From assembly GCA_000092065.1 (NCBI GenBank), contig CP000582.1: a stretch of DNA of 64,000 nt. One strand, 5' to 3'. Below, piece after piece: positions 1 to 40,398 of the stretch. The number at the start of each line of letters is the position of its first letter. The first letter of the stretch is position 1. Below the pieces are notes generated by a model, which ran no database searches, had not been told where the DNA came from, and saw nothing but the letters and a program-made list of their open reading frames with translations. This stretch comes from Ostreococcus lucimarinus (taxonomy: Eukaryota). The translations under genes were made by a program, and so were the position numbers.

Positions 1-2
1 AC

Positions 3-3000: not shown

Positions 3001-4616
3001 CGATGACGCGAGACGTGGACGTTCTGCAACTACACGGAACTGGCACCGCGCTGGGCGATCCAATTGAGATTGGAGCAGCGCTGAGCGCTCTCGAAAGATT
3101 ACCTGCAGATCGCGCTTTTACGTTGGAAGCAGTAAAAACGCACGTCGGACACACTGAAACAGCGGCAGGGGCGGTATCGTTGGTGCAAGAGACGAAAAAG
3201 TTGGCCGGCTGTGCTACGTCGCTCGTCGCGCACTTGCGCTTGGTAAGCCCACATTTGCTGGGTTTGTTTGCCAGTGCCCAAACGAATGGCACACACATCG
3301 CCCGACAGTTTTCAGCTCGTTTGGCATCACTCGTTAGCGTTTCGGGCTTCGCCTTTCAAGGCACGAACGCAAACGCTGTCCTACGATTGAACTCTTCAAA
3401 ATTGCCCGCGCCGCGTCATTGTCCCAAAGCCATCTTTCATCGATCGCGCTTCTGGCCACTTCCAGAGCTCCACGTCCACTTGAAGACGTTTGATGGCAGC
3501 AACGATGCCGTTACTTTTCGGTTTACCGCGTGTGTTGACGCGAGATTACATTCGCATTTGCTCGGTTGCAAAACTTCCGCGCGAGAAGCCATCTTTCCGA
3601 GTGCCGGTTTCCTTGAACTCGCGTGCGCGGCTTCACGAATATTCGATCGCGAACCCATGGCGTGCGACGCGGCCGTCTTCGCACCTCTAGCCTTACGTAC
3701 GAATGGCGTGTACTTCTTCACAGTGGCCGTGAACGCGAAATCGGGGGAAGTCGAGGCGAAGGAGTCTTTGGACCAAGGCGAGGCGTGTATGCAATGCCGA
3801 GTTCGTCGCACAGATTTGGCGTCGAGGCGAACAGCCCCCGGTCCCGTTTCATCATTGCTCGTCGGGCGTTCGGATTCATCGAATAGAACTGTTCGAGCAC
3901 GCGTCAAGGCGAGGAGCGAGCAATCGCACTTCGAATATCGCATAGATCCTTGTGCGCTCGAGAGCTCGTTCGCCGCGAGATCGGCGATGCGCGATCCGGG
4001 CGTGCTCCGGGCGTGCGCTAGGCACTACACCACGCCTCGGACGGCAGCGATGTCTATGATCGCGACCATATGTGATCATGCACACACAATGAACGAAGTT
4101 TACACGATCGGTGTCGTATTCAAGAGGCCGTTTGATCGAGTTTACCGACTCATCAGACAAACGTTCGCGGCGACACCCGAAGCGACGACTTCACTTCGCC
4201 GTGAAGTTGTGGCGCCGTTACCGCCGCTCGAATCGCTCGAATCAATCCAGCGTAAAATCTATGCGCATTGTTCGCGAATTACAGGCGCCTCGTCGATCGC
4301 GGGCGGCGACGCGCTCGTCGATCTTGGCATGGATTCCTTGGCGGCGGCGGAGTTGCGTGCGGCAATTCAAAACGAGTTCGGAATGTTGCTCCCCATTCAC
4401 GCCGCGTTCGAGTGTCCCACCGCCGATGCACTCGCGAGTTACATCGTTCGCGAACATACAAAAAAGCGAAAAGCGGAGACCGCGGGCGCAACGCGACCGG
4501 CGTCGACTGTTGAAGGCGAGACGGTTCGTTGGCTTGTCGTTATCGCGGTTATCGTCGTCGTGATGGTTTTACACATCGTAAAGTTGACGAGAGCAGTCTC
4601 GCTCGAAGATGCTTGA
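3..4616 (+). CDS. Type I polyketide synthase, 5'-partial (the reading frame is open back to the window start). Domain order KR - ACP - ACP - KS - DH - ACP - C-terminal TM helix, with no AT domain.
   Basis: Two tandem ACP motifs GLDSLGGQEMK(A/Q)QIEDEF lie at about nt 1650-2000. The KS motifs DTACSSS, HGTGT and KTHVGHTETAAG are present. The DH motif is LHSHLLGCKTSAREAIFPSAGFLELA. A terminal ACP (LGMDSLAAAELR) is followed by the hydrophobic tail WLVVIAVIVVVMVLHIV. The ORF-track start at 120 is a GTG, and the frame is open upstream of it. Confidence 0.85.
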   Translation, partial: CRCESVTTSSKSFTKRAKTTKISLAKIHSLTTERHVEYFVHPTCLDSTLQLGAVMNAGSSETKVPVGVHAYAAQQISVKRRSLHASASNSSGNYVLERANVVGLELKPMRRGKALVTKQTRMLYALRWFALQPCVPGQKRTVSDLESCATCGVLTAACAVQCNTATGIEIETIRTTSNDALHGFARTVGQEIKQLRTESVRFDGARTRYVASADASLKFVGESYDVLVQANMTYGSRVRKAQNVIKPPSRKSLTLEVRIPRQAPKTLRVMITGGLGAIGVEYATHVNSSTIDARVRLLGRSGRGAEFDGRTFSSVHACKCDAGFSEDVKPVVYHQCDEILHAAGVLRDGLIRFQSALSVRVVIGAKVNSWQTLESHLVGAMVRRIVHCSSIAALTGSSGQSNYSAANACLDSIADFARFRGDSISSMQFGAWSNAGMAEARVLEKVNSMGFGVVTPELGMRALERVMSRQGIGNVIATPYDFKKFAEALPVIPRMYRDVAVKQKQKTSKKQRKHVGGGAARLSVAVVRRKIQQIATQVIGREIGLDEPLMDAGLDSLGGQEMKAQIEDEFAVELPATAAFDYPTVSVLGDFVAGELGAGDVDEDEDTAEGSGISIADVQSRVLQIACQVIGRDVDPNEPLMDSGLDSLGGQEMKQQIEDEFDIELPPTVVFDYPTIKDLATFVADEIGATAATKKSPTIVVASSLKHVAVRNFDLTAPHPPDADAIRRVPYHRWDHDFYQEAVQEYHSSRVSGYNLHVAPFGGFMTNYISFDNRAFAISALEALYMDVQQRSLLEGTFQATTAGTFAVTSEDTLEGSLSSGVWVGIAACDYADEVLRRYEHALHPYLVSGTSLNVAAGRISYVFNFKGPSVSVDTACSSSIVTTHSAFISMRSSEIGRAVSCGVQAILSEHITGVFHSSGMLAPDGRCKTLDASADGYVRGEARGVLALEAVDASEAVNVTNVLLAGAAVNQDGRSSSLTAPNGPTQKTVIRAAISTASAMTRDVDVLQLHGTGTALGDPIEIGAALSALERLPADRAFTLEAVKTHVGHTETAAGAVSLVQETKKLAGCATSLVAHLRLVSPHLLGLFASAQTNGTHIARQFSARLASLVSVSGFAFQGTNANAVLRLNSSKLPAPRHCPKAIFHRSRFWPLPELHVHLKTFDGSNDAVTFRFTACVDARLHSHLLGCKTSAREAIFPSAGFLELACAASRIFDREPMACDAAVFAPLALRTNGVYFFTVAVNAKSGEVEAKESLDQGEACMQCRVRRTDLASRRTAPGPVSSLLVGRSDSSNRTVRARVKARSEQSHFEYRIDPCALESSFAARSAMRDPGVLRACARHYTTPRTAAMSMIATICDHAHTMNEVYTIGVVFKRPFDRVYRLIRQTFAATPEATTSLRREVVAPLPPLESLESIQRKIYAHCSRITGASSIAGGDALVDLGMDSLAAAELRAAIQNEFGMLLPIHAAFECPTADALASYIVREHTKKRKAETAGATRPASTVEGETVRWLVVIAVIVVVMVLHIVKLTRAVSLEDA

Positions 4617-7968: not shown

Positions 7969-9063
7969 ATGGCGAACGTCCCGAGGCGCGCGCCGCTCGG
8001 GACGTTATCATTCAATCGCGATGACGACCATCACACGGTCGCGTCGACGTCGTTCGCATCGCCGGCGTCGAAATTCGCCGGTCGCTCGACGGCGTCGCTC
8101 GACGACGACGGGGACGCGTACGCCGTCGCGAGCGTGAACACGCCGGAGATGTGCGCCATGGCCGACGGACGCGTCGGGTCCAGTCACGAGATCGCGCTGT
8201 CGCTCGTCGTCGAGCGCGATCGAGCGATCGAGCGCGAACTGGAGATGGCGGCGTTCGCTCGCGCGGAGGCGCGGCGATGCGACGAGACGACCAGGGCGTT
8301 GGTCGCGGACGTCGAGGATTTGACGGTCGCGTTGGGGGAGACGGACGCGCACGTCGCGCGCATGCGGTGGTTGTGGGCCATACGCGCGGTGGTGAGCTTG
8401 GTGCGCTGGGATCGTGAGCGGCGGGAGGCGAGGAAGGCCAAGGCGAAGGCGCGCCGATTGGCGACGCAGTTGGCGCGGATAGAAAAGTACATCGCCACGG
8501 CGGCGTGTGATTTCGACGATTTGAACGCCAAGCTCGTGAAAGAGGCGAATGATGCGAAGATGGCGCGCGCGGAGGCGCGGGAGGCGTGGGAGATGCTCGC
8601 GCGTGAACGCGCGGCGCGCGCGGAGTCTCCGGCTGAGTCTTCGGCGGCGCTCGCGCCGCCGGCGAATCCGTCGACACCTCCGGCGCGGCGCGCGGCGAAC
8701 GCGCGAAGACGTGAGGCGAAAGATGCGTGCGCCTCGGTCGCGGCGCACGTCGAAAGTCTTCTCGCGAACTCACCTTCAAAGCAGCTGAATCAGCTCGCGC
8801 TCGCGCAGCGCGAAGCCGCCGACCGCGCTCGCGCGACGCTCGCCGATCACCCACGCACGAGTGACGGTGCGTTAGACCCCAAAGACGTCGTCGCTCTCAT
8901 CGCCGTTCACGCGCTCGAGCGGTGCGCCGAGCGCTCCTCGAGCGACGGGCGGCGCGCCTTCGCCCGAGCCGCCAAGCGCTTCGAAACCGTCGCTCGCGCG
9001 TGCGTCGCCGGCGACGACGCCGCGCCCCTCACCGCTGCCGCATCGTCATCGCGCGAAACTTAG
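7969..9063 (+). CDS. Hypothetical coiled-coil protein.
   Basis: ATG at 7969 (MANVPRRAPLG...). Long alanine/arginine/glutamate heptad-like region. No recognisable domain. Confidence 0.4.
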   Translation: MANVPRRAPLGTLSFNRDDDHHTVASTSFASPASKFAGRSTASLDDDGDAYAVASVNTPEMCAMADGRVGSSHEIALSLVVERDRAIERELEMAAFARAEARRCDETTRALVADVEDLTVALGETDAHVARMRWLWAIRAVVSLVRWDRERREARKAKAKARRLATQLARIEKYIATAACDFDDLNAKLVKEANDAKMARAEAREAWEMLARERAARAESPAESSAALAPPANPSTPPARRAANARRREAKDACASVAAHVESLLANSPSKQLNQLALAQREAADRARATLADHPRTSDGALDPKDVVALIAVHALERCAERSSSDGRRAFARAAKRFETVARACVAGDDAAPLTAAASSSRET

Positions 9064-9775
9064 CTTGTATAACGTCATCGATTAGCCCGCGCCTCGTCGT
9101 CCCGCGCGGAATCCGCGCGTCGCGCCGCGGGAGCTCGAAACTAGATACCTTTTCGATTCACGACTCGTCCCGAGTCCCACCGGAACAAAAATTCAATTTT
9201 TTTCCCGCGCTTTCTCCCCGCGTCCCATCGGACGCCGGTCGACCGACCGACCGCGAAACGTCGCGTCTCGTATACCGCGACGAAAATCGCCATCAATTTA
9301 AAAATGGAACCGTGTGGGTGCCCACCAGCGTGGCGCGTGTGACGCGCGTGGCGCGCGCGCGTCATTCGTCGACGCACCGCGTCGCAACACACGCGTCACT
9401 CGTCGCGTCGCATCGCATCGCGCGATCGTTCACGCGCGCGCGCGCACGTTCGCGCGCGCGTTCGTCCCGCGTCGACGCGCGGACCGTCGTCGACGTCGTT
9501 CGCCCAATCGCGCGCGCGTTCGCGCGGCATCTTGCGCGTCCATCGAGGCGTCGTTCGCGCGCGGTCGACGCGACGCGACGCGCTGGCGATCGTCGACGAC
9601 GCGCGTAGATTTACGCTTCGTGCGTTCACGCGCGTTCGTGGACTCGAGCGCGCTCTCGCGCGTCGTCGGACGGCGACATCCATCGGTCGACCGTTCGACC
9701 GTCAACGACTCGGTCAGTCGCGGCGCGGTCGGTCGCCACGCACCGAAGGGACACTTCTGAAGTTTGATTGATTGA

Positions 9776-11866
9776 TTGATGATGACGGCGCCGTTCGCCG
9801 CGCTGGGATCGTCGCCGGGCGTGCGCCGCGCGTCGCCGATCGCGACGGCGATGCACGGGGAGAGCGCGAACTCGATCTACGGCCACTCCCCAGGGTCGCT
9901 CGGGTCCGTCATGGGGGCGAACGGCGCGCTCGCGAGTTCGCCCGCGGGACGCGGGTCGCCCGCGGGACGACCGCCGACGATGGGGACGGCGTCGGCGTCG
10001 GCGTCGAGAGCGTCGTTGCGATCGTCACCGATGTCGGTGTCGCCTGGGATGCCGCCGTCGCCGGCGAGCGTGTCGAGAGCGAATCCACCGCTGACGCGCA
10101 CGACGAGCGGGGAGCCGGCGACGGTGAAGATTGGGTTCCAAGTCGGCGGAGGCGCGGGGAGCGAACGCGCGTCGGCGAAGCCGCCGATCGGGATGCTTCG
10201 CGCCGAACTCGCGGGTGAGTTTACGTGCGATGTCTTCGATAGCGAGGCGTATCGCCGCGCGTTGACGACGGCGCCGGAAATTTTCGCCGAGCCGACGGTG
10301 CGAGAGGCGTTTGATTTCACCGCCAAGTCGCACGCGGGGCCGGGGCTGGGACCGCACTTTGATCGATGCGTGGACACCGCCATCACGCTCGCTAAGCTCG
10401 GTATGGACGCTAAAACCGTGGCCGTGGGACTGTTGCACGACACCTTGGACGTGACGTCGAGCACGAAGGAGGACTTGCGCAAGAGATTTTCAGACGAAGT
10501 CGTCGCGTTGGTCGAGGACGTCACTCGAGTACACCGCGTTTCCAAGCTTCATCGGGCGTCGGGGCGCGTGTTGGATTTCAACGAACGCGCGCAGTTCCGC
10601 GCAATGTTACTTGCGATGACAGACGCGCGCGTGGTGATCGTCAAGCTCGCGGCGCGTCTGATAAAGATGCGCAACTTGGCGAGCGCGCCTCAGTCGCAGC
10701 AACAAGCCTTCGCGGATGAGACGCTCACCATTTACGCCCCTCTCGCCGCGCGCCTGGGGATTTTCAGCGTGAAGAACGAGCTCGAGGATCTAACATTCAA
10801 ATGGATGAATCCGCAAGCGTACGCAGAGCTGTCTCAGACGCTCGATCAGCGCGAGTCAATCGTCGCCGCGCTGAACAAGCTCGACGAAGAACTCTCGTCC
10901 CGCCGTGCGCAAGTCGTCGACTTGTGCGGACGTCAAAAGTCAGTGTATTCAGTGTACAAGAAGATGCTATCCAAGAACCAAAAGCTCGAAGACATCATGG
11001 ATTTGCGCGCCATTCGAATCATCGTCGCCGACGGCGATAACGACGCCGAGTCTGAGCAAACGTGCCGAGAGACGCTTGAAATCGCGCTGTCGACTTTCCA
11101 GTCTGTCGAAGGCAGGTCGAAGGATTACATCGCGAATCCGAAGGCGAACGGGTACCAATCCTTGCACGCGGTCGTTCGAGACGAAAACGAAACCACGTTT
11201 GAGATTCAAATTCGTTCTGCCTCGATGCACAGAACCGCAGAATTTGGCGTCGCCGCTCACTGGCGTTACAAGGAGCACGAGAAATCGGCTACGAGCGCCA
11301 AGGTGGATCAGCAAATTCAGTGGGCGCGCTTCATGTTGACGTGGCAAAACGAACTCGATGACCAGCAAAAGATTCGTCCCGCGCGCGTGGCGCACGCCGT
11401 GGACTGCGGTGCGGCGCTTCGACCTTGCATGTTCCCGACGCACTCCGCCGACTGTGCGTACAGTCGGGAGGAGGGCTTTTGCCAGTCGTGCGAAGTGGAA
11501 GACGACTCTCCGAACTACATCATCACCGTCGTCGACGGCGCTGTGGCGGTTCGCGAGATTGCGCAAAACTCCACCTTGGCTGATCTTAAGCTCGAAGACG
11601 CGCACGTCCCTGGAGGGGCGCGATCGAGTGAGTTTTACCGCGTCTCGAGCGTGCGCGTCAACAAAAAATCCATCGCGACTGCAAACGCATCCTCGACGAC
11701 CTTGAAAATGGGTGACGTCATCGAGGTAAACCGCACGCGTATTCTGTCGCCAAACAAAAGCTGGGACGAGGCGGATGACGTGTCTGTGTTCGAGGATTTG
11801 AACCTCGAAATTCACGCTTTGCCGAAGACGGACGCCGTCGACAGGACCACGGTTCGGATGATCTAA
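9776..11866 (+). CDS. RSH: RelA/SpoT homolog (RSH): (p)ppGpp hydrolase (HD) plus synthetase domains, with an N-terminal targeting region.
   Basis: The HD-domain region LGMDAKTVAVGLLHDTLDVT is present. The synthetase motif is GRQKSVYSVYKKMLSKNQKLEDIMDLRAIRIIV. A TGS/ACT-like region lies downstream. The gene starts at ATGATGATG, preceded by a (TGAT)4 run that gives stops in all three frames. Confidence 0.9.
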   Translation: MMMTAPFAALGSSPGVRRASPIATAMHGESANSIYGHSPGSLGSVMGANGALASSPAGRGSPAGRPPTMGTASASASRASLRSSPMSVSPGMPPSPASVSRANPPLTRTTSGEPATVKIGFQVGGGAGSERASAKPPIGMLRAELAGEFTCDVFDSEAYRRALTTAPEIFAEPTVREAFDFTAKSHAGPGLGPHFDRCVDTAITLAKLGMDAKTVAVGLLHDTLDVTSSTKEDLRKRFSDEVVALVEDVTRVHRVSKLHRASGRVLDFNERAQFRAMLLAMTDARVVIVKLAARLIKMRNLASAPQSQQQAFADETLTIYAPLAARLGIFSVKNELEDLTFKWMNPQAYAELSQTLDQRESIVAALNKLDEELSSRRAQVVDLCGRQKSVYSVYKKMLSKNQKLEDIMDLRAIRIIVADGDNDAESEQTCRETLEIALSTFQSVEGRSKDYIANPKANGYQSLHAVVRDENETTFEIQIRSASMHRTAEFGVAAHWRYKEHEKSATSAKVDQQIQWARFMLTWQNELDDQQKIRPARVAHAVDCGAALRPCMFPTHSADCAYSREEGFCQSCEVEDDSPNYIITVVDGAVAVREIAQNSTLADLKLEDAHVPGGARSSEFYRVSSVRVNKKSIATANASSTTLKMGDVIEVNRTRILSPNKSWDEADDVSVFEDLNLEIHALPKTDAVDRTTVRMI

Positions 11867-20773: not shown

Positions 20774-22468
20774 TCAAAATTGTGTGCGTCGCATGTCTCG
20801 CACGAAGCGCGCGAAGCGGTCGAAATTCTGCGGCTCGAAGAGCTCGTCGCACATCCGCAGGTACGTGAACGATCCGAGAACGCACGCGGTATCGGGTGAC
20901 GACGACGAAGTCATCATCGTATCGTCGCTCGAAAGTGAATTCCGCGACTCAGCGCCGGGTGAGCTGACGTTTTCCGCGCTCATTGAGGACGAAAGTCGCG
21001 CCAACGGCTTTGCCGGCGACGGCGAAACGCCCGCGTATCGTTCGTACGTGCGAACGATTTGCGCGAACGCGTCGACATCGAATCTCGCCAACGCGTTTTC
21101 TCCGTTCACCGTCACTCCGGCTTCGGCCGCTTCTCGCAGAACTTGCGCCAACAAGCCTTCGGGCGAGCACATGTGCTCCGGCGAGTGCTCGACGTCGCGC
21201 ATCTCCACGCACGTAAACGTAAGCTCGACGCCGAATCGAGCGCACAGGTCGATGATTTGCGAGTATCCTCGCGGTTCACATCCTAAAACCATGTCCACAT
21301 CGCCGTTCCCGTCCGCAGGCGGCGAGGGCGTGGCGTTGTAATACCCCGCCGTGCACTCCGCGGCGCGACTGGGGTGACCGTGCCACCAATGCACGCCCGC
21401 GCATTTGATGCCGAGCGAGGCGTCGACGCCGTCAAACTCCCGCACCGCGTGTTCCAAAACGCGCTCACCGTGCGCGACGAGTTCGCGACTGTACCACGAC
21501 AAGAAAAACTTACCGTACGGCGTGTTCCAATCCCCCGTTCCGTCGGCGGCGAAGAAGCTCCTCGACGCGCTCTCCGGGGCGCACGAAAAGCTCGCGCTCG
21601 TCAGGCTCGAATTCGACGTGCTCGCCGTCATCGTGTGACGTCGCTTGGCGTCGGGTTCATCCTCACTCGTTCGTCTGATCGGTGGTTCCAACACGTTTCC
21701 CTCCGGATCGCAGTTGTAGCTCGGCCCGTTCACCGGCGGGTGGCGTCCCCACTCGGGCTTGCCGCACGCCGCGGCTTCGTACGCCAGGGACATGCGCGCG
21801 CGCTCGTCAAAGGCTTGGAACTCACCGACGCCCGGGAAGTGCCATCCATCACCCGCGCGATAAGATGGATACCGAAGTTCACCGCACGGCCCGAGACCTA
21901 TGATGACTTGCGAAATCACCGGCGGCGCGTCTGCGGACCCGGTCAAAAACGTCGCGAACGCCGCGCGAAACGCCGCCATGAAGTCGCGATAACACTCCAA
22001 CGGCGATCGATCGCCTCGTCGCGCGTCCCGCGTTTCGTCCCCCCACAGCGACAAGTATTCCTCAGTGACGTTTCCTCGTCGATCGGCGTACATGTTTTCC
22101 CTCGCCGGCTCCCCCCGCGCCCACTCCGGCAAGCCGATTTCGCACCCCTCGTCCCCGACCGAGTCCCCGCACGCGTGAAACGACAGCACGACGTCCACGC
22201 TCAATCCAGCGTCTCGACACATCTCGCACAGCGCGAGATATCCCCGCCACTCGTACGCTCTCGGTCGCTCGCCCTCGCACGCCCCCCACCAGCAATCCAC
22301 CATGACGCCGTCCGCGCCCGCGTCGGCGACGCTTCGCAGCGCCTTCGCCAGCGTCTCCCGCGTCGTCCTCGTCGTCGTCCTCGCCACGCAATCCAGCGGC
22401 AGCATCACCCGCACGCCGCGTCCCGCGTCTCTTCCCTCGCGTCCGTTCGCGCCGTTTCCTCGCCGCAT
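20774..22468 (-). CDS. BAM: Beta-amylase (glycoside hydrolase family 14). The N-terminus and start codon are uncertain.
   Basis: GVMVDCWWG, LSFHACGDSVGDEGCEIGLPEWA and GLGPCGELRYPSY match the conserved beta-amylase blocks. The ORF-track start at 22603 is a GTG. The first in-frame ATG (MRRGNG...) is at about 22468. An upstream exon cannot be excluded. Confidence 0.85.
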   Translation of the reverse strand: MRRGNGANGREGRDAGRGVRVMLPLDCVARTTTRTTRETLAKALRSVADAGADGVMVDCWWGACEGERPRAYEWRGYLALCEMCRDAGLSVDVVLSFHACGDSVGDEGCEIGLPEWARGEPARENMYADRRGNVTEEYLSLWGDETRDARRGDRSPLECYRDFMAAFRAAFATFLTGSADAPPVISQVIIGLGPCGELRYPSYRAGDGWHFPGVGEFQAFDERARMSLAYEAAACGKPEWGRHPPVNGPSYNCDPEGNVLEPPIRRTSEDEPDAKRRHTMTASTSNSSLTSASFSCAPESASRSFFAADGTGDWNTPYGKFFLSWYSRELVAHGERVLEHAVREFDGVDASLGIKCAGVHWWHGHPSRAAECTAGYYNATPSPPADGNGDVDMVLGCEPRGYSQIIDLCARFGVELTFTCVEMRDVEHSPEHMCSPEGLLAQVLREAAEAGVTVNGENALARFDVDAFAQIVRTYERYAGVSPSPAKPLARLSSSMSAENVSSPGAESRNSLSSDDTMMTSSSSPDTACVLGSFTYLRMCDELFEPQNFDRFARFVRDMRRTQF

Positions 22469-23062
22469 CGCGTCCCGCGCCCTCTCGCTCGCGTCTTCTC
22501 TTCTCGCCGCGCGCGCGTTCGCCGTCGCCGCCGTCCCGTCCCGTCGCGCGCGTCCCTCTTCACCGTCTTCCCTCGTCCCGTCGCTCGCTCGCGCGTTCGC
22601 CACCGCGTCACCGCGTTCGCGTCGTCTTCTTCGCGTCGTCGCGTCGTCGTCGCGCGTCCCTCGTGCGCGTCGCGTCCCTCGTGCGTGCGTTCGTTCGTTC
22701 GTTCGACAGTCTGGCGACGGCGCGCGTTCGACGCGTCCGCGTTCGCGCCGCGCGTCCTCGCGCGCGGTCCGTTCGAACGAAAACCGCGGTCACGATTACG
22801 GATTCCCGACCTCGTCGCGCGTCGGGCGTCGCGTCGCGTCGCGTCGTCGACTCCCGCGTCGTCGACGCGCGCGCGCGCGCGCGATCGGCGCTTTCGCGAA
22901 AGATTTTTTCAGCCTCGGCGTGTACCCCTCGTGCGGGGGGTACACGCGAATCATCACTCGTCGATGTATCGATCGGTCGTCGTGACGTATTCAAGCGGCG
23001 TTCGGCGCTATGAGAGCGCGCGCGCGAGGCGGCGCGCGCGTCGAACGTAAACCGACCGACGC

Positions 23063-24314
23063 GTGCGCGCGACGCCGAGGCGCGGCGGCGACGGCGCGCC
23101 ACTCGACGCCGCGATGCGCGCCATGACGTCGTCGCGATCGACGTTCGCCGCGCCGATGCGCGCGATGCAAAACGCGAAAACGCCCGCGCGTCGACGCGGG
23201 GGGGCGTGCGCGACGCGCGCGCGCCTGGACGCGGGCGTGGGGGCGTTCGGGAGCAAGGCTGGGATGACGCAGGTGTTCACCGACGACGGGCTGTGCGTGC
23301 CGGTGACCGTGATCGCGGTGCGCGACGGGAACGTCGTGACGCAGGTACGGGAAAAATATCGAGCGAACGCGGGATGGCCGTCGGGGGGTCGGCGCGCGAG
23401 GGCGCGCGAGACGCGGCGAACGATTCGACCGACGCGCGGGCGCGTGAGGGTTGGACGACGGGGTCGATGGATGGGCGCGGCGCGCGCGATGCGTCGACGC
23501 GCGCGGCGCGTTCACGATGGGCGAACGATCGGGTGGTGTTATCGTCGATCGCGCGCGCGCGCGAAGGGCTCGGATGGGGCGGGCGAGGCGCGAGGAGGAC
23601 CGACGCTTCGCGCGCGCGGGGAGAAGCCCTAGGGCGAGGTTACCGTCGCGACGCGCGGGCGCGGGCGCGACGGACGGATGCGTTCGGGCGCGGCGTAGAG
23701 CGACGAAACGCGAAGGAGAGAATCAGAGACTGACGATATCGCGATTCGCGCGCGTTCGTGAAACACAGGTGAAGACTGAGGCGACGGATGGGTACAACGC
23801 GGTGCAAGTCGGCTACGACGCCGTGCGCGACGACAAGCTCACGAAGCCCGAACTCGGGCACTGCAAGAAGGCGGGCGCGCCGGCGCTTCGACACCTCGAA
23901 GAGTTCCGTTTGCGCGACGCTCCGACGTACGAAGTCGGGGCGCAAATCAAGCCGACGGAGTTGTTCAAGGAGGGTGATAAGGTTGACGTGCGAGGCCGCA
24001 CGATCGGTAAGGGGTTCCAAGGCGCCGTGAAGCGTTACGGTTTCTCGCGCGGTTTGATGACGCACGGTTCTAAATCGCACCGTCAACACGGTTCCATCGG
24101 CAGCGGTACCAACCCGGGTCGCATTTACCCGGGTAAGCGCATGCACGGTCACATGGGCAACGAGATGGTGACGACGAAGGGCTTAACCGTCGTCTCCGTC
24201 GAGGACGACTGCATCATCGTCAAGGGCAACGTGCCGGGCAAGAAGGGCGCTCTGTGCAAGGTGACGCCCAACAAGAAGGTCGGGGACGCGCGCTGGAGTC
24301 CCACGTCCGCGTGA
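23063..24314 (+). CDS. rpl3: Organellar 50S ribosomal protein L3 (uL3) with a transit peptide. Two exons: 23063..23344 and 23769..24314.
   Basis: Exon 1 ends ...[28 protein letters not shown] and exon 2 begins [16 protein letters not shown]... Joined, they reproduce the bacterial L3 block RVTQVKDLANDGYRAIQV. The downstream region has [29 protein letters not shown]. Confidence 0.85.
23345..23768 (+). other. Intron (424 nt) in the L3 gene.
   Basis: Donor CAG|GTACGG. Branch GACTGACGAT about 40 nt upstream of the acceptor ACACAG. Both exons are in phase 0 and the splice joins two conserved L3 blocks. Confidence 0.8.
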
Positions 24315-27975: not shown

Positions 27976-28653
27976 ATGTCCTCTCGCGCGTCTTCCTCGC
28001 GCGCGCGCGCGCTCGGCAGAGACGCCTTGGCGCTGACGCTCGACATGTTTCGCGGCGCGCGACGCCGGACCAACAAGAGCGCGCTCGATCGCGCCCGCGA
28101 GCTCGTCGCGCGCGGCGTCATCGACGAGCCGGCGTGGATGGACGCCGCGCGCGCGTCGGCACCGAGCCCGCGGCCGTTCAGGGCGCGCAAGCCGCCCGCG
28201 ATCGCGCTCGAGACGGATCATCTGATTCGAGGGTATTACAAGCGCGAGCCCGCGGCGGCGTTCGACGCGATCGATTGCGGCACGACGCCGGAGCGCGGCG
28301 ACGCGCGCGCGCATCACGCGCAAAAATTCGCGCTGCGACAGCTGGAGGTGATGCGGACGAAAAAGATGAACGAGCGAGAGGCGCTGCGAATCGTCGAGGC
28401 GGAGCGAGACGCCGAGCGAGACGCGTACGCGCGCGCGGCGAGAGAGGGACGGCCGCTCGACGAGGGCGAGCGCGCGCTCACGGCGCCGGGCGAGGGATCG
28501 GACGTGGAATTCGGAAGCGAGATCGAGCGAATTCAAGCGACGGAGGAGGCGGAGTGGAGCGCGCGCGTCGAGGCGGCGAGACGCGCGGCGGGCGAACGCG
28601 CCGACGGCGCCGCGCCGACGGCGCAGATTCCCAGGCGTCGTCGCGGCGCGTGA
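27976..28653 (+). CDS. Probable mitochondrial ribosomal protein mS23/MRP-S23-like. Tentative.
   Basis: RARELVARGVIDEPAWMDAARA, IALETDHLIRGYYKREP and FALRQLEVMRTKKMNEREAL resemble the conserved mS23 N-terminal blocks. This rests on pattern similarity alone. Confidence 0.45.
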   Translation: MSSRASSSRARALGRDALALTLDMFRGARRRTNKSALDRARELVARGVIDEPAWMDAARASAPSPRPFRARKPPAIALETDHLIRGYYKREPAAAFDAIDCGTTPERGDARAHHAQKFALRQLEVMRTKKMNEREALRIVEAERDAERDAYARAAREGRPLDEGERALTAPGEGSDVEFGSEIERIQATEEAEWSARVEAARRAAGERADGAAPTAQIPRRRRGA

Positions 28654-28871: not shown

Positions 28872-30155
28872 ATGCTCGACGACGGCGACGTCGATGCGCA
28901 GCGCGCGTCCGCGCGCGAAGCCGCGCCTTTATTGCGGACGGATGAAGACGCAACCAGGGTGTTGGCGCATCCCGCGACGCGTTCGTCGCGCGCGGTGACG
29001 CTCTGGACGCTCGCGAGCGCGCTCGTCGGCGCTGGACTCTTCGCGTGCGTCGACGGGACGCGCCGCGAGGTGAAACACCGCGCCGCGCTGGGTGAAGCGT
29101 GGGAAACAGAGTGGGGCGCGCTGGACTTGGGCGAACGCGCGACGCGCGCGACGGCGGCGTTGCAAGGGAAAACCGAAGGGCACGGGCTGCCGGTGTTCTT
29201 GCACATCCCGAAGGCCGGTGGAACGACGATCGAAACCGCGCTGGGGGTGTTGGGAATCGATGTCGGGTATTGTCACCTCCCCGAAGCGCGCGGCACGCCG
29301 ACGCCGTACGAGACGAGTCCGACGTTTGAGAACGAGGCGTGGCACAGGCCGCCGGCGGCGTTCGTTCCGGATTCGTGGGCGATCGTGCGGAATCCGTACA
29401 GACGGTTCGCGAGCGATTTCTTGTGGGCGAAATATTTAGGGTCGGAGCCCGGGCAGTTTTGGGGGTTGAACCCAGGGTATAGCGAGCGGAACTGCGAGGC
29501 GTTTCAGAGCTACGTGAAGGATATGATCTCACCCGCCGCGTCGCCGGATGGATGGATGGATGATAAGTTCAAATGCTACAACGACGCCAAGTTCACCCTA
29601 CAGGGCATTGCTGACTGCGAGACGAAGTATCCGGGCTTTAAGATTCACCTCGGCTCGCACGTGCTACCGCAACGCATCACGACGGCGTACGCCGAACGCG
29701 TCTTCAAATTCGAGGAATGCTTCGACTCCGCGCCGGGGAAGTGCAAGGACCCGAGAAACATGATCGAGCAAGACAACATCATCGCTTTCATGCGTAATCG
29801 CTACACTCCAGCGGTGACGATCGAAGAGAAAATTAACGAATGGAACGCCGCCGTGGAGAAGCCCGATGTCATGTCGTGTTGGGCTGAATTCGACCCGGCG
29901 ATTTTACGCGTCTACGACGCCGTCTACACGCACGACTTTGCGGGATTCGGATACAACAAGATATCTCCCAAGGGCACCACCGACGGCACGTCCGTGTTCG
30001 ATAACTCGGCACACACCAATCACCACGCCGACGGCAAAACGCTCGAACAGCTCAGGTCAGAGCTTCCCGAAAACACACCCATCATGGACGTCCAGGGACC
30101 GAAGTGCGACGCGGGGGCGCCGGCCCTCGGCCGCTCGAACGATCGCGCGCGTTGA
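28872..30155 (+). CDS. Golgi-type (type II membrane) sulfotransferase-like protein, copy 1 of a tandem pair.
   Basis: An N-terminal signal-anchor AVTLWTLASALVGAGLFACV is present. The PAPS 5'-PSB-like motif is GLPVFLHIPKAGGTTIETALGVLGIDVGYCH. A second conserved block is PDSWAIVRNPYRRFASDFLW. Confidence 0.7.
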   Translation: MLDDGDVDAQRASAREAAPLLRTDEDATRVLAHPATRSSRAVTLWTLASALVGAGLFACVDGTRREVKHRAALGEAWETEWGALDLGERATRATAALQGKTEGHGLPVFLHIPKAGGTTIETALGVLGIDVGYCHLPEARGTPTPYETSPTFENEAWHRPPAAFVPDSWAIVRNPYRRFASDFLWAKYLGSEPGQFWGLNPGYSERNCEAFQSYVKDMISPAASPDGWMDDKFKCYNDAKFTLQGIADCETKYPGFKIHLGSHVLPQRITTAYAERVFKFEECFDSAPGKCKDPRNMIEQDNIIAFMRNRYTPAVTIEEKINEWNAAVEKPDVMSCWAEFDPAILRVYDAVYTHDFAGFGYNKISPKGTTDGTSVFDNSAHTNHHADGKTLEQLRSELPENTPIMDVQGPKCDAGAPALGRSNDRAR

Positions 30156-30295
30156 GCCGTGCGTTTAAACGGACCGCGGCACTGATATCTAGTAGAATTG
30201 AAATAATCTCATTTTGTATTGCAATCGCACTCCGCGAACCCGCGAGCCTTCGTCCGCGCGCGAGCCGCCCGCACACTCGCGCGCGCGGCGCGACG

Positions 30296-31609
30296 ATGCG
30301 CGTCGGCCAAGATGAGCGCGTGAGTCTCATCCCCGAGCGCACCGCGGGCGACGACGGCGCCCCCGACGCGTCGTTCTCGTCGTCGACGCGCGCGCGCGCG
30401 TGCCTCAACACCCATCGCAGCAAGTTGACGTGGGCGTGCGTCGCCGTCGTTGTCGCGCTCGGCGCGGTGTGCGGCGTCGAGTTTAAGCTAGAGCGCGATC
30501 GCGAAATCGCGTGTCACACGCGCACGGATCGGGGGATGGGCGGACCGGGCGTGGTGCGACTGGGAGAGGGGCTGACGCCGCGCCGAGTCGGCGACTTTGG
30601 GGACGCGGCGGCGGCGGCGAAGGCGTTCCCCCTCCGTGCCGGTCACGATGATTATTCAAAGTACGACAGCGTCGCGCTGAAAGAATTAGTGATGGAACAC
30701 TTGCGCGGAAAGTGCGAAGGGAGCGGGTTACCGGTGTTCTTGCACATTCCGAAGACGGGCGGGACGACGATCGAGACGGTGCTGGGGACGTTGGGAATCG
30801 ACGTCGGGTATTGTCACAAGCGACCGTTTGAGTTCCGGAAGAAGTACATCGGGTACGAGCAGTGGCACACGCCGCCGGCGGCGGAGGTGCCGGATTCGTT
30901 CGCCATCGTGAGAAATCCTTACTCGCGAGCGCAGAGCGAATTTTTGTGGCGCATGAATTGGTTGGACAAGGCGCTCTTCCACAGCTTGAGGCCTGGATAC
31001 GACCCCGAGAATTGCAAGAAGTTTGAGAATCACATCAAGCAGCAGGTTCACGACGCCCACAAGTCCGAGTTGTCGCAGTGCTACCAAGAGGTCGAGTACA
31101 CCATCCAAGGCATGAACGAGTGCGACGGAAAGATTGCGGCGAGGTTGAACGTCGAATCGCACTGGCTCCCGCAATCCGTCACGGCGGCCAGCGCCTCGCG
31201 CTTGTTCCGCTTCGAAGAGTGCATGGGTCCAGAGGAAGGCACGTGCCCTCGTGTAAGAGGCGAAGGCGAGCAGCCCAACGTCGTGTCCTTTTTACGTTCC
31301 CGATTTCACCCCGCGGTGTCCATGGCTTCGCACGAAAACGATTGGAACGCCGCCGTGGTAAAACCCAACCTTCACGCGTGCTGGGAAAACATGAACCCCA
31401 GCGTGTTGAACGCATTCAACGCCTTCTTCAAGCACGACGTTTCAGCCTTCGGATACGAGATGGTGACCCCAGCCCACGCCCTGGACGCCCCCGACGGCGG
31501 ATTCCACTACGCTCCGGCGCTCGCGCTCGCGCCGAAAACTTTGGGCGAGATCCAAGCCGAGCTCCCGAGCGGTGACGTCGTCCAGGCCAACGTCGGTCCG
31601 CAGTGTTAA
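30296..31609 (+). CDS. Golgi-type sulfotransferase-like protein, copy 2 (a paralogue of 28872..30155).
   Basis: Signal-anchor KLTWACVAVVVALGAVCGV. GLPVFLHIPKTGGTTIETVLGTLGIDVGYCH and PDSFAIVRNPYSRAQSEFLW are near-identical to the blocks in copy 1. The gene begins about 140 bp after copy 1 ends. Confidence 0.7.
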   Translation: MRVGQDERVSLIPERTAGDDGAPDASFSSSTRARACLNTHRSKLTWACVAVVVALGAVCGVEFKLERDREIACHTRTDRGMGGPGVVRLGEGLTPRRVGDFGDAAAAAKAFPLRAGHDDYSKYDSVALKELVMEHLRGKCEGSGLPVFLHIPKTGGTTIETVLGTLGIDVGYCHKRPFEFRKKYIGYEQWHTPPAAEVPDSFAIVRNPYSRAQSEFLWRMNWLDKALFHSLRPGYDPENCKKFENHIKQQVHDAHKSELSQCYQEVEYTIQGMNECDGKIAARLNVESHWLPQSVTAASASRLFRFEECMGPEEGTCPRVRGEGEQPNVVSFLRSRFHPAVSMASHENDWNAAVVKPNLHACWENMNPSVLNAFNAFFKHDVSAFGYEMVTPAHALDAPDGGFHYAPALALAPKTLGEIQAELPSGDVVQANVGPQC

Positions 31610-33608: not shown

Positions 33609-34544
33609 TCACTTCTTTGAGCGTACTTCCGGAATTCGTTTTGGATCGTCCACCGGCGCGGGCATCGGATCCTTGGGCACTGCGGGTTCATCTTCAGGAG
33701 CGGCTTCAAACTTAAACCTCTCCTTGCTGTTTCGTAAGAACGCTCGTCCCAACCCACCCGCGATCTCGTGGTGAATGGCGTTCTCCACGAGCTCGTTTGC
33801 CTCCTCTTCGATGGCGCCAGCGTGCATTGGTAGCGCCAAGTCAGCGGAGTATGGATCGTATGGATCGTCTGACGGTTCCGTTGTCGGCTCCGGTGGTGTC
33901 GGTACAGGCTGCGGTGCCGGCTCTGGCTGTGGCTGCGACGCCGGCTCTGGCTGTGGCTGCGGCGCCGGCTCTGGCTGTGGCTGCGGCGCCGGCTCTGGCT
34001 GTGGCTGCGGCGCCGGCTCTGGCTGTGGCTGCGGCGCCGGCTCTGGCTGCGGCGCCGGCTGCGATGACGGCTCAGGCTGTGGCGTCGGCTGTGGCATCGG
34101 CGGCGGCGGATAAGTCGTGGACACATCCGGTGTCGTCGCTCTCGGTGCCGCACTCGGCCCTAAATCGCTATTCCTGGAGCTCGACGCCGAGTCCGAATCC
34201 ACCGTCACCTTTGCCGGCGAATCGTCGCCGTTAAAGTGTTGAAAGCCGAACGCCGCGACCGCTGCGAACGCCGCGAGCACGAACACCAGCGCGCACATCC
34301 GTCCACACCCGCGCTTAAACGACTCATTCCGCGCCCTTTGACGCTCTAAATACTCGGGCGCGTCTAACAACGACTCCCGTTCGCCTCCGCTTCGCGACGT
34401 CGCCCCGCCGCCGTCCCGCGCGATCTCTTCCGCGTTCCTCTCCCGCTCGATCGCCTTGGAATACCGCGCCGCGGTGGCGGCATATCGTTCGGAGTGTCTG
34501 AATGACCCACTCGCGCGATCAAGCGCCGGTCCGCGACCGCTCAT
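33609..34544 (-). CDS. Single-pass membrane protein with a proline/glutamine-rich (EPAPQPQP)n tandem repeat.
   Basis: A TM helix MCALVFVLAAFAAVAAFGF is followed by about 10 repeats of PQPEPAPQ. These are encoded by perfect 24-nt tandem units. The unique C-terminal region is acidic. Confidence 0.6.
   Translation of the reverse strand: MSGRGPALDRASGSFRHSERYAATAARYSKAIERERNAEEIARDGGGATSRSGGERESLLDAPEYLERQRARNESFKRGCGRMCALVFVLAAFAAVAAFGFQHFNGDDSPAKVTVDSDSASSSRNSDLGPSAAPRATTPDVSTTYPPPPMPQPTPQPEPSSQPAPQPEPAPQPQPEPAPQPQPEPAPQPQPEPAPQPQPEPASQPQPEPAPQPVPTPPEPTTEPSDDPYDPYSADLALPMHAGAIEEEANELVENAIHHEIAGGLGRAFLRNSKERFKFEAAPEDEPAVPKDPMPAPVDDPKRIPEVRSKK
33905..34100. repeat. Tandem repeat of 24-nt units (gccggctctggctgtggctgcggc), about 7-8 copies, inside the PQ-repeat gene.
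   Basis: Direct inspection: consecutive near-identical 24-mers occupy lines 33901-34081. Confidence 0.9.
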
Positions 34545-37998: not shown

Positions 37999-39450
37999 CT
38001 ACGGCGCGGCGTCGAGCGGTGGCGCTCGAGCGAAGACGAGGCTGGCGTTGGTGCCGCCGAAACCAAACGAGTTGCTCATCGCCGCTCGAGCGTCGTCGCG
38101 CAGTCGAGCCGCGACGCCACCAGCGCCGACGATTGGGATTCGTAAGTTTGGGTCGACCGTGTCGTATCCGAACGTCGGAGGCACGTCTCCGGTGTGAAGA
38201 GCCATGACGGTGTACGCGGCTTCGATGGCGCCCGCGGCGCCGAGCAAATGCCCGGTGGCGCCCTTCGTGGACGTCGTGAGCACGCGCCCAGACTCGATCG
38301 CGTCCGCACCGAAGACTGTTTTGAGCGCCATGGCTTCTGCGGCGTCGCCCAAAGGCGTCCCCGTGGCGTGCGCGTTGACGTATCCAACGTCGAGCGGATC
38401 GTCGACGCCGGCGTCTCGCATGGCGGCTCGCATCGCGCGCGCCGCGCCTTCGCCATCCGGGCTCGCGCGCGTGACGTGGTGCGCGTCTCCCGACGCGCCG
38501 TAGCCGCGTATCTCGGCGTACACCTTATCGACGCCTCGCGCGCGCGCGTGTTCGAGAGTTTCGAGCACTAAAACCCCCGCGCCTTCGCCCATGACGAAGC
38601 CGTCGCGCGCGACGTCAAACGGTTTCGCTCTCCCCGTCGCGCTCAGCGCCCTCGCCTTGGCGAACGCCGCCAATGAAACGGCATCTATGCATCCCTCAGC
38701 ACCACCGGCGATCATCACGTTCGCATCGCCGCGCTGTAGCGCCCTAAACGCGTCCCCTATGCAGTGCGCCGACGTCGCGCACGCCGTCGCCGCCGCCAAA
38801 TTCGGCCCTCGAAACCCGTGATCCATCGATATCCTCCCCGCCCCCGCGTTGGCCAAAATCCGCGGCACAAAGTACGGCGATATCCTCCGCAGTTCACCCT
38901 TCGCCATCCAACCTCCCGCGCGCGTTAAATCGCTCGCGCCTCCCATCCCCGCGCCGAACGACACCCCCACGTCGTCCCTCGGCGCGTCCCTCGCGCTCGT
39001 CATCCCCGCGTCCTCGATCGCCTCCTTCGCCGCGCACCGTCCGTACGCCACGAACGACGCCAAACTTCCTCCATCGCTCCACGCGTTCGCGTCGTACCCT
39101 TCCCTTCGGTTCACGACGCCCGCGTGCCGCGTTCGCGCCCGCGCGCCGTCGCTCGCCGCGAGCGCGTTCCAGCACTCGCGCGCGAGATCGTCCTCGCGCA
39201 GCGCCCGCGTCGCGCCCGCGTTCGCCAGCAGCGCGCGCCAGTTCTCCGCCGTCGTCCGCGCGAGCGGGGTGACGAGTCCGACGCCCGTGACGACGACGCG
39301 GCGCGGATAAAGCGCGTCGAGCGGGACACCGCGCGCGTAATGGGACATCGACCGTCGCGCGTCGCCGAGGCGTCGCGAGCCATCGCGCGACGCGCGAAGC
39401 GCTTCGAGGACTCGCGTCGACGCGTCGCGACGCGCCGACGCGAGCGCCAT
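37999..39450 (-). CDS. KAS: 3-oxoacyl-[acyl-carrier-protein] synthase (KAS I/II family), organelle-targeted.
   Basis: RRVVVTGVGLVTPLA, the active-site Cys block AATACATSAHCIGDAFRALQRGD, NAHATGTPLGD, STKGATGHLLGAAG and GFGGTNASLVF are all present. ATG at 39450 (MALASARRDASTR..., presequence-like). Confidence 0.85.
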   Translation of the reverse strand: MALASARRDASTRVLEALRASRDGSRRLGDARRSMSHYARGVPLDALYPRRVVVTGVGLVTPLARTTAENWRALLANAGATRALREDDLARECWNALAASDGARARTRHAGVVNRREGYDANAWSDGGSLASFVAYGRCAAKEAIEDAGMTSARDAPRDDVGVSFGAGMGGASDLTRAGGWMAKGELRRISPYFVPRILANAGAGRISMDHGFRGPNLAAATACATSAHCIGDAFRALQRGDANVMIAGGAEGCIDAVSLAAFAKARALSATGRAKPFDVARDGFVMGEGAGVLVLETLEHARARGVDKVYAEIRGYGASGDAHHVTRASPDGEGAARAMRAAMRDAGVDDPLDVGYVNAHATGTPLGDAAEAMALKTVFGADAIESGRVLTTSTKGATGHLLGAAGAIEAAYTVMALHTGDVPPTFGYDTVDPNLRIPIVGAGGVAARLRDDARAAMSNSFGFGGTNASLVFARAPPLDAAP

Positions 39451-39537
39451 CGCGGTGTGCGGCGTCGACGACGCGATGACGTCGACGATGGATGCGACGG
39501 CGACGGCGACACAGAGCGACGCGCGGTGCCGACGGCG

Positions 39538-40398
39538 ATGACGCGCGCGCTCGGCGCGACGCGCGCGAGCCGCGGGCGCGTCGCGCGCGTCTCGCGCGTC
39601 TCGCGCGACCGGACGACGCGCCGAGCGCGCGGCGCGACGCGCGTCGAAGCCGCGGCGGATAAAGCGCCGTCGGTCGTCGTGCTCGGAGGGTCGGGATTCG
39701 TCGGCGCGCGCGTCGTCGAGGCGCTCGCGCGCGCGGGCGCGCGCGTGACGACCATCTCTCGCTCGGGACGCGACGCGACGGGCGCGCGCGAGGCGCGGGC
39801 GGTGGATCTGGCGGAGGCGAGCGCGGCGCGCGAGGCGCTGGCGGAGGCGCTGCGAGACGTCGACTGCGTCGTGTCGTGCGTCGGCGTCATCGGCGGCGAT
39901 GACGAGGCGATGCGGAGAGGGAACGGGGATCATAACGTGCTCGCGATCGAGGCGGCGAAGAAAGCGGGCGTCGGGCGGTTCGTGTACGTGAGCGTGGCGA
40001 GCGTCGTGCCGGACGTCGTGGGCAAGACGCCGTTGATGAGGGGGTACTTTGAGGGTAAGCGCGACGCGGAGGCGTGCTTGCGCGAGAATTACGCGGAAGG
40101 TGATTACTTCATCGTGAAACCGAGCTTCATTTACGGCGGGGATGCGTTTTCGTTGACGCCGCCGCGAGTGACGAAGACGTACGGCGACGTCTTGGCCAAG
40201 GTGCTCGGCAGCGGACCCGTCAAGGCTTTGGCGGCGAAAGCGCCGGGACCGATCGCGTTGACGCTCGCGGAACCGGTGAGCGTGGAAGACGTCGCGGGTG
40301 CGTGCGTGGCGGGCGCGATGGGGACGTACAGCGCGTCCAACGTCGTCGACGGGACGGACGACATCAAAAAAGCCGCCGCCGCCGTCGCCGCCGCGTGA
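39538..40398 (+). CDS. NAD(P)-binding Rossmann-fold protein (NmrA/atypical SDR, epimerase-like) with an N-terminal targeting region.
   Basis: VVVLGGSGFVGARVVEALARAGARVTTISRSG is a GxxGxxG Rossmann motif. The gene is divergent from KAS, with the ATGs about 87 bp apart. TGTAA lies about 20 nt after the stop. Confidence 0.7.
   Translation: MTRALGATRASRGRVARVSRVSRDRTTRRARGATRVEAAADKAPSVVVLGGSGFVGARVVEALARAGARVTTISRSGRDATGAREARAVDLAEASAAREALAEALRDVDCVVSCVGVIGGDDEAMRRGNGDHNVLAIEAAKKAGVGRFVYVSVASVVPDVVGKTPLMRGYFEGKRDAEACLRENYAEGDYFIVKPSFIYGGDAFSLTPPRVTKTYGDVLAKVLGSGPVKALAAKAPGPIALTLAEPVSVEDVAGACVAGAMGTYSASNVVDGTDDIKKAAAAVAAA

Follow-up and report, generated by a model that had tools for sequence, protein, structure and literature searches.

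Enzymes of the Sulfotransfer_2 family (PF03567), among them animal HS6ST, HS2ST, uronyl-2-ST and the CHST8–14/HNK-1ST Golgi type, are type II membrane proteins, anchored near the N-terminus and with the catalytic domain in the lumen, in which the 5′-phosphosulfate-binding (5′-PSB) motif PKxGxT is followed by the 3′-phosphate-binding (3′-PB) motif RxPxxRxxS. The latter is specific to enzymes that use 3′-phosphoadenosine 5′-phosphosulfate (PAPS), and the catalytic base of PAPS-dependent sulfotransferases, a His or Glu, is positioned between the two motifs. According to a 2015 survey of algal carbohydrate sulfotransferases (CHSTs) that included Ostreococcus lucimarinus, all green-algal CHSTs carry PF00685 only (PMC4659905). 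The DNA analysed here is a stretch of 64,000 nt from O. lucimarinus (GenBank assembly GCA_000092065.1, contig CP000582.1, 895,087 bp), which as a whole is called the window. Two adjacent genes within it are likely to encode anciently diverged paralogues, each a type II membrane, PAPS-dependent sulfotransferase of a divergent, HS6ST-like Sulfotransfer_2 clade. So far this clade is known from Ostreococcus and from related sequences in marine metagenomes, and it is missing from the list of the 2015 survey (PMC4659905).

The pair resembles PF03567 enzymes in its predicted type II layout and in the order of its two PAPS motifs; its scores against the family are, however, marginal. The clade also has invariants of its own: WHTPP, SHxLPQ, a set of eight cysteines and, at the C-terminus, the tail TLG..Q..LP.G..Q...GPxC, whose last residue is Cys. 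It was not possible to map any of them onto a PF03567 member that has been characterised. Compared with zebrafish HS6ST3 (PDB 5t03/5t05/5t0a), the 5′-PSB is nearly identical (FLHIPKTGGTTI in the clade, FLHIQKTGGTTF in HS6ST3) and the 3′-PB motif lines up. StaL (PDB 2ov8) and the cytosolic SULTs (7v1o, 2z5f, 5x2b), in contrast, are soluble proteins without a signal anchor, at 12–16 % identity; they belong to Sulfotransfer_1/3-type families, to which the pair has no Pfam matches. A full-length homologue with the same motifs, O. tauri XP_003083964.2 of the P0027 cluster, belongs to the next outer clade of the tree and lies on a different chromosome (contigs of 411–424 kb).

The tandem pair and its family

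An initial annotation, made from the letters of the window alone, described a head-to-tail pair of paralogous ORFs about 140 bp apart, and both ORFs are present on the + strand:

28872–30155, + strand: copy 1 (position-1 paralogue), 427 aa, identical to XP_001416057.1 / ABO94349.1 / UniRef100_A4RTK5
30156–30295, no strand: intergenic spacer between copy 1 and copy 2, 140 bp, sequence read directly
30296–31609, + strand: copy 2 (position-2 paralogue), 437 aa, identical to XP_001416058.1 / ABO94350.1 / UniRef100_A4RTK6

The start of copy 2 is an internal ATG within a longer ORF (30104–31609). Since an exact-sequence look-up matched both translations exactly to gene models of O. lucimarinus CCE9901, their starts and stops agree with what is publicly annotated. 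The spacer would have to contain both the 3′ end of copy 1 and the promoter of copy 2. Both proteins are named ‘predicted protein’ at NCBI and ‘Sulfotransferase’ in UniRef; gene models and family label were thus already public before this analysis.

The two copies share 42 % identity across 317 aa (BLASTP, E 2e-85), a similarity far beyond chance. The alignment runs from just before the block GLPVFLHIPK(A/T)GGTTIET (residues 105–122 of copy 1, 144–161 of copy 2), through IVRNPY(R/S)R..S(D/E)FLW (residues 171–184 and 204–217), to a common C-terminal GPxC. The near-identical core blocks quoted in the initial annotation are therefore present in each copy. Its description of diverged termini holds for the N-termini, where no alignment is possible over 96 residues in copy 1 and 135 in copy 2, and only in part for the C-termini, where both copies keep a terminal TL..(I/L)..ELP....GPxC motif and copy 1 adds 15 residues after it:

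30096–30107, + strand: copy 1 C-terminal GPKC, residues 409–412, followed by the 15-residue extension; Pro and Cys invariant in alignment A1
31595–31606, + strand: copy 2 C-terminal GPQC, residues 434–437, Cys being the last residue; P435 and C437 invariant in alignment A1

Alignment A1 holds 17 sequences and alignment A2 holds 28, and residue numbers are those of copy 2 unless stated. No further members or remnants of the family were found elsewhere in the 64-kb window.

Searched against Pfam, copy 2 matched PF03567 with 28.1 bits (E 2.9e-6, profile positions 12–251 of 252), above the gathering cutoff of 22 bits, and copy 1 fell just under it with 19.9 bits (E 8.7e-4, positions 12–99 only). 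PF03567 was matched at E ≤ 0.01 by 20 of 28 clade members (best E among the 28, 7.9e-8), while Sulfotransfer_1 was matched by a single one (E 0.0093). Copy 1 can be placed in PF03567 because it is homologous to copy 2 and because these 20 clade members match. On these profile scores PF03567 is the sole credible Pfam family for the pair. The carbohydrate or Golgi sulfotransferase family proposed at the outset agrees with the Pfam scan, which returned Sulfotransfer_2 and no unrelated family. A scan of the proteins against NCBIfam gave no match, as expected from a prokaryotic library.

A word-indexed search for relatives found only 17. An exhaustive profile search recovered about 13 full-length representatives at E < 1e-100 and 43 at E < 1e-30; at E ≤ 0.001 it returned 3355 distant superfamily members, mostly matching the motif region alone. 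Run against all PDB sequences, the family profile recovered one protein, zebrafish heparan-sulfate 6-O-sulfotransferase 3 (5t03, E 0.0094), while phmmer with copy 2 against PDB sequences returned noise only. Within the profile match, FLHIPKTGGTTI pairs with FLHIQKTGGTTF, the 5′-PSB loop of HS6ST3. A second segment, non-significant alone, pairs IVRNPYxRxxSEF with LRDPVSRYLSEW, the 3′-PB motif of HS6ST3. Significant similarity across the catalytic domain beyond the PAPS motifs, which would mark the pair as HS6ST orthologues, was not found. The initial reading of the shared block as the PAPS 5′-phosphosulfate loop is borne out by this alignment, and the refuting test defined for it in advance came out in its favour.

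The motifs are located as follows:

29196–29228, + strand: copy 1 5′-phosphosulfate-binding loop FLHIPKAGGTT, residues 109–119, with Lys114; aligns to HS6ST3 FLHIQKTGGTTF
30737–30769, + strand: copy 2 5′-phosphosulfate-binding loop FLHIPKTGGTT, residues 148–158, with Lys153
29340–29351, + strand: copy 1 WHRP, residues 157–160, with candidate catalytic base His158; His invariant in A1 and A2
30863–30877, + strand: copy 2 WHTPP, residues 190–194, with candidate catalytic base His191; H191 invariant in A1 and A2
29385–29420, + strand: copy 1 3′-phosphate-binding motif VRNPYRRFASDF, residues 172–183, with Arg173 and Ser181; Arg, Pro and Ser invariant
30908–30943, + strand: copy 2 3′-phosphate-binding motif VRNPYSRAQSEF, residues 205–216; R206, P208 and S214 invariant
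29655–29672, + strand: copy 1 SHVLPQ block, residues 262–267, family-specific H-x-x-P-Q; invariant in A2, nearly so in A1
31157–31174, + strand: copy 2 SHWLPQ block, residues 288–293; H289, P292 and Q293 invariant in A2

Both copies thus contain a 5′-PSB loop of the form PKxGxT[ST] with its Lys, as HIPK(A/T)GGTT, and downstream of it a 3′-PB motif of the form RxPxxRxxS, as VRNPY(R/S)R..S(D/E)F. Between the two sits an invariant His (H158 of copy 1, H191 of copy 2, in WH(R/T)PP), which by analogy with the base position in known sulfotransferases is the probable general base. Residues invariant in A1 are P146, H150, P152, K153, G155, G156, H191, P194, R206, P208 and S214. In A2 they are H150, G155, G156, H191, R206, P208, S214, H289, P292, Q293 and five cysteines; P146, P152 and K153 are conserved in ≥ 90 % and P194 is nearly invariant.

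Gene conversion between the window copies was considered as a source of the near-identical 5′-PSB block and rejected, there being no clear excess of identical codons: 22 of 29 identical residues in the block have identical codons, compared with 97 of 153 overall, at a G+C content of third codon positions (GC3) of about 0.8.

Predicted membrane layout, fold and proposed reaction

Each protein has exactly one strongly hydrophobic 19-residue segment, located near the N-terminus and preceded by net positive charge, in agreement with the signal anchor of the initial annotation:

28995–29051, + strand: copy 1 putative signal anchor/transmembrane segment VTLWTLASALVGAGLFACV, residues 42–60, Kyte–Doolittle hydropathy 1.92; net charge +3 in the 15 residues upstream
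30434–30490, + strand: copy 2 putative signal anchor/transmembrane segment, residues 47–65, Kyte–Doolittle hydropathy 2.08; net charge +4 upstream

In the AlphaFold2 model of copy 2, residues 42–74 form a helix that is followed by a disordered stem. The ratio of nonsynonymous to synonymous substitution (dN/dS, ω) for residues 1–135 of copy 2 against its orthologue is 1.49, and the N-terminal stem appears to evolve unconstrained. Eight conserved cysteines in the presumed luminal domain of copy 1 (134, 208, 235, 249, 283, 291, 336 and 412) match in position those of copy 2 (173, 240, 262, 276, 309, 317, 362 and 437). Together, the single anchor with positive charge upstream, the unconstrained stem and the eight cysteines predict the classical layout of a Golgi type II sulfotransferase.

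The models have the α/β fold of sulfotransferases, and that of copy 1 is confident and of the same fold. In a Foldseek search against the PDB, sulfotransferases ranked first, with HS6ST3 at the top, at E values that are not significant (E ≥ 1.8).

The proposed scheme follows the established mechanism of PAPS binding and sulfuryl transfer. The short, positively charged N-terminal tail would stay cytosolic, the one hydrophobic segment would anchor the protein in a Golgi or secretory membrane, and the poorly conserved stem would bear a luminal catalytic domain, about 300 residues long and stabilised by disulfides. There the PKxGGTT loop, with Lys114 (copy 1) or Lys153 (copy 2), may bind the 5′-phosphosulfate of PAPS, and the 3′-phosphate may be bound by Arg173/Ser181 (copy 1) or Arg206/Ser214 (copy 2) of the RNPYxRxxS motif. 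With the invariant His158 or His191 acting as probable general base, sulfuryl would be transferred in line to an acceptor hydroxyl, most likely that of a glycan on a secreted or surface glycoconjugate. The Golgi location, the carbohydrate acceptor, the identity of the catalytic base and a functional divergence by which the copies would prefer different acceptors or positions are inferences.

The syntenic locus, its age and its rates

The locus was compared with related loci or contigs (L001–L008), of which L001–L003 represent a relative at 85–91 % nucleotide identity to the window. Gene order is the same on every related contig: Patatin, mannose-6-phosphate isomerase (PMI), a small ORF of 199–262 aa and the sulfotransferase array. 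An EF-hand mitochondrial carrier follows the array wherever the contig extends past it and the gene is annotated, and AMP deaminase follows the carrier in the three longest loci (L001, L004 and L006). The array itself comprises two genes in the window and L001–L003, one in L004 and L007/L008, and three in L005 and L006; no extra copies, and no remnants of a position-1 gene, were found in the single-copy loci L004 and L007. The copy 1 (position-1) ORF is intact in the window, L001, L005 and L006. Both genes are maintained, the orthologous pair in the 85–91 %-identity relative having intact ORFs and dN/dS < 1.

The small ORF (28012–28650 in the window, + strand) lies directly upstream of the array in every syntenic locus, encodes about 200–260 aa and has no Pfam match. 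In L006 the first ~190 nt of genes 2 and 3 (8001–8190 and 9494–9683) are 100 % identical, and the identity extends into part of the 40 nt before them. The ~190 nt code for the cytosolic tail and membrane anchor; the catalytic domains have diverged. The position-2 and position-3 genes of L005 show the same pattern of 5′ identity with one codon indel. The pattern looks like gene conversion or a partial re-duplication limited to the 5′ end.

Neighbour-joining trees (Kimura distances, bootstrap) place copy 1 with the first array gene of the other loci (79 %); with copy 2 they group O. tauri A0A090MCB8, the only array gene of L004 and gene 2 of L001 (100 %). Both clades are represented in O. tauri, its copy 1-clade protein A0A1Y5I5D4 being weakly supported; XP_003083964.2, annotated ‘Sulfotransferase’, is the more distant paralogue noted above. 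The copies belong to two different clades, and orthologues of each occur in several lineages; the duplication is therefore old and predates the divergence of these lineages. Synonymous differences between the copies near saturation (proportion pS 0.56, dS about 1.0) agree with this. The second and third genes of L005 and L006 form a clade of their own (100 %), evidence of a later, lineage-specific duplication.

The initial annotation had pictured a local gene duplication in an otherwise single-copy region. The tandem paralogues stand, and the window does hold the single pair; a recent event does not agree with the phylogeny, and the simple picture gives way to a syntenic array that varies from one to three genes. 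Likewise, of the conservation in related genomes that it proposed to examine, the locus is kept in synteny and the size of its array differs among relatives. The dN/dS between the copies, also suggested there, was computed and is uninformative because synonymous sites are near saturation.

Rates were estimated by the Nei–Gojobori method with Jukes–Cantor correction; codon bias is strong (GC3 ~0.8), so only the comparison with neighbouring genes is meaningful. Between the window and L001, ω was 0.62 for copy 1 and 0.68 for copy 2, compared with 0.11–0.52 for nine well-aligned neighbours (PMI 0.24, carrier 0.19, AMP deaminase 0.11, small ORF 0.52). Between L005 and L006 it was 0.50 at position 1, 0.20 and 0.17 at positions 2 and 3, and 0.10–0.23 in the neighbours. 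These ratios indicate that the sulfotransferase genes are under purifying selection, and that constraint is consistently lower on the position-1 gene than on the neighbouring genes, and on copy 2 in the O. lucimarinus comparison only. The raised values fit relaxed constraint or diversifying selection, between which these data do not distinguish. A uniformly raised dN/dS across the family was considered and is unsupported: in L005/L006 it is raised at position 1 only, and positions 2 and 3 resemble the neighbours. For the small ORF upstream of the array, dN/dS was 0.52 between the window and L001 and 0.10 between L005 and L006.

A tenth neighbour, the Ribosomal_L3 ORF (23448–24311, + strand), gave ω 0.71 against L001 with 287 of 399 codons aligned. 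Such a ratio is implausible for a ribosomal protein and is treated as an artefact: the gene, called as at least two short ORFs in L002 and elsewhere, probably contains an intron, which makes a comparison of its ORFs unreliable.

Elsewhere in the window, positions 33907–34090 hold about six repeats of a 24-bp unit (96 % matches) with an overlapping 18-bp periodicity, adjoining the aligned part (34101–34544) of an ORF that is conserved, runs on the − strand and follows the mitochondrial carrier gene downstream. BLAST against L001 gave multiple offset alignments here; the repeat number thus differs between the window and L001. The G+C content is 0.54–0.55 at the left end (1–4000) and 0.68–0.71 in several 2-kb bins (8001–10000, 22001–24000 and 38001–40000).

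Alternative readings and biological meaning

Several results weigh against a pair of catalytically active, luminal carbohydrate sulfotransferases. Neither putative luminal domain contains an N-x-S/T sequon, so N-glycosylation lends no support to a luminal location. The ω values of 0.62–0.68 are on the high side for strongly constrained enzymes. In structure, the proteins match best to sulfotransferases that are cytosolic or act on small molecules (StaL, SULTs) and not to carbohydrate enzymes, and acceptor class is therefore not settled by structure. Additionally, a search of the literature library found no paper citing any of the six accessions of the pair.

The structural ranking is compatible with protein, lipid or small-molecule acceptors, and the same PAPS chemistry might be carried out in the secretory pathway on protein tyrosine (TPST-like), on a lipid or sterol, or on a small secreted metabolite. 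A carbohydrate acceptor is nevertheless preferred, as the only relatives at the level of sequence are PF03567 and HS6ST, and a non-carbohydrate acceptor is judged unlikely.

It is highly improbable that the duplication was recent and that copy 1 is drifting to a non-catalytic or pseudogene state. Copy 1 does score below the Pfam threshold over a short part of the profile, the position-1 dN/dS is raised in two independent comparisons (0.62 and 0.50), and two syntenic loci (L004 and L007) lack a position-1 gene. However, the copies are only 42 % identical with synonymous sites near saturation, and their separate clades with orthologues in several lineages largely refute a recent origin. Moreover, copy 1 lacks none of the invariant motif residues or the eight cysteines; its ORF is intact in four loci (the window, L001, L005 and L006), its dN/dS is < 1, and it yields a confident model of the same sulfotransferase fold. 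Least credible of all is a P-loop-like enzyme of a different kind, for example a kinase, that binds nucleotides and shares a PKxGGT-type loop by chance: the loop is PKxGGTT and not the Walker A GxxxxGK[ST], the 3′-PB RxPxxRxxS is invariant, every match ranked above kinases is a sulfotransferase, and the Pfam scan found no kinase family down to E 10.

Two anciently diverged, membrane-anchored sulfotransferases thus remain the likely products of the pair, and the clade shows that PF03567-type, HS6ST-like enzymes also occur in green picoalgae. The practical weight of this is small, as it concerns a divergent clade of a well-known enzyme family that was already automatically annotated as ‘Sulfotransferase’.

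A link to viruses has been drawn for other sulfotransferases of the genus. In a 2026 preprint, sulfotransferase genes of the small outlier chromosome are reported as overexpressed in lines of O. tauri and O. mediterraneus that are susceptible to virus, and sulfotransferase activity is tied to virus susceptibility in Ostreococcus (10.64898/2026.02.10.705097). The pair described here lies on an 895-kb chromosome instead. Close viral homologues, which might indicate gene exchange with prasinoviruses, were looked for and rejected: 62 IMG/VR loci encode distant relatives only, at 23–42 % identity and mostly over a motif region of 70–100 residues, the best covering residues 147–390 at 24 %. Such relatives with FxHxPKxG and VRxPY occur on IMG/VR contig 3300033142_002731 (L009, 124 kb) and on the GVMAG contigs L011, L012, L014, L020, L029 and L056. 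These giant-virus and viral metagenome proteins are superfamily members and not close homologues of the algal clade.

It is an improbable idea that the array is a fast-evolving, copy-number-variable module that diversifies the sulfation of Ostreococcus cell-surface glycoconjugates under prasinovirus pressure. The dN/dS raised above that of well-aligned neighbours and the gain and loss of copies are compatible with it, as are the tail and anchor gene conversion suggested in L005/L006 and the cysteine-rich inserts peculiar to the family, although none of the four points to it alone. If it were true, the position-1 and position-2 enzymes would produce sulfate epitopes that differ from each other and serve as virus attachment sites or hide them, and a core-genome locus would be linked to the outlier-chromosome sulfotransferase signal of virus-susceptible lines. 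Copy-number change at a fixed locus, together with faster evolution than that of well-aligned neighbours, makes these genes reasonable candidates to look for in virus-resistance transcriptome data sets.

To our knowledge, Ostreococcus is a naked cell for which no sulfated wall polymer has been described. What several conserved, putatively luminal sulfotransferases would act upon in such a cell is therefore a tractable question in a transformable model alga.

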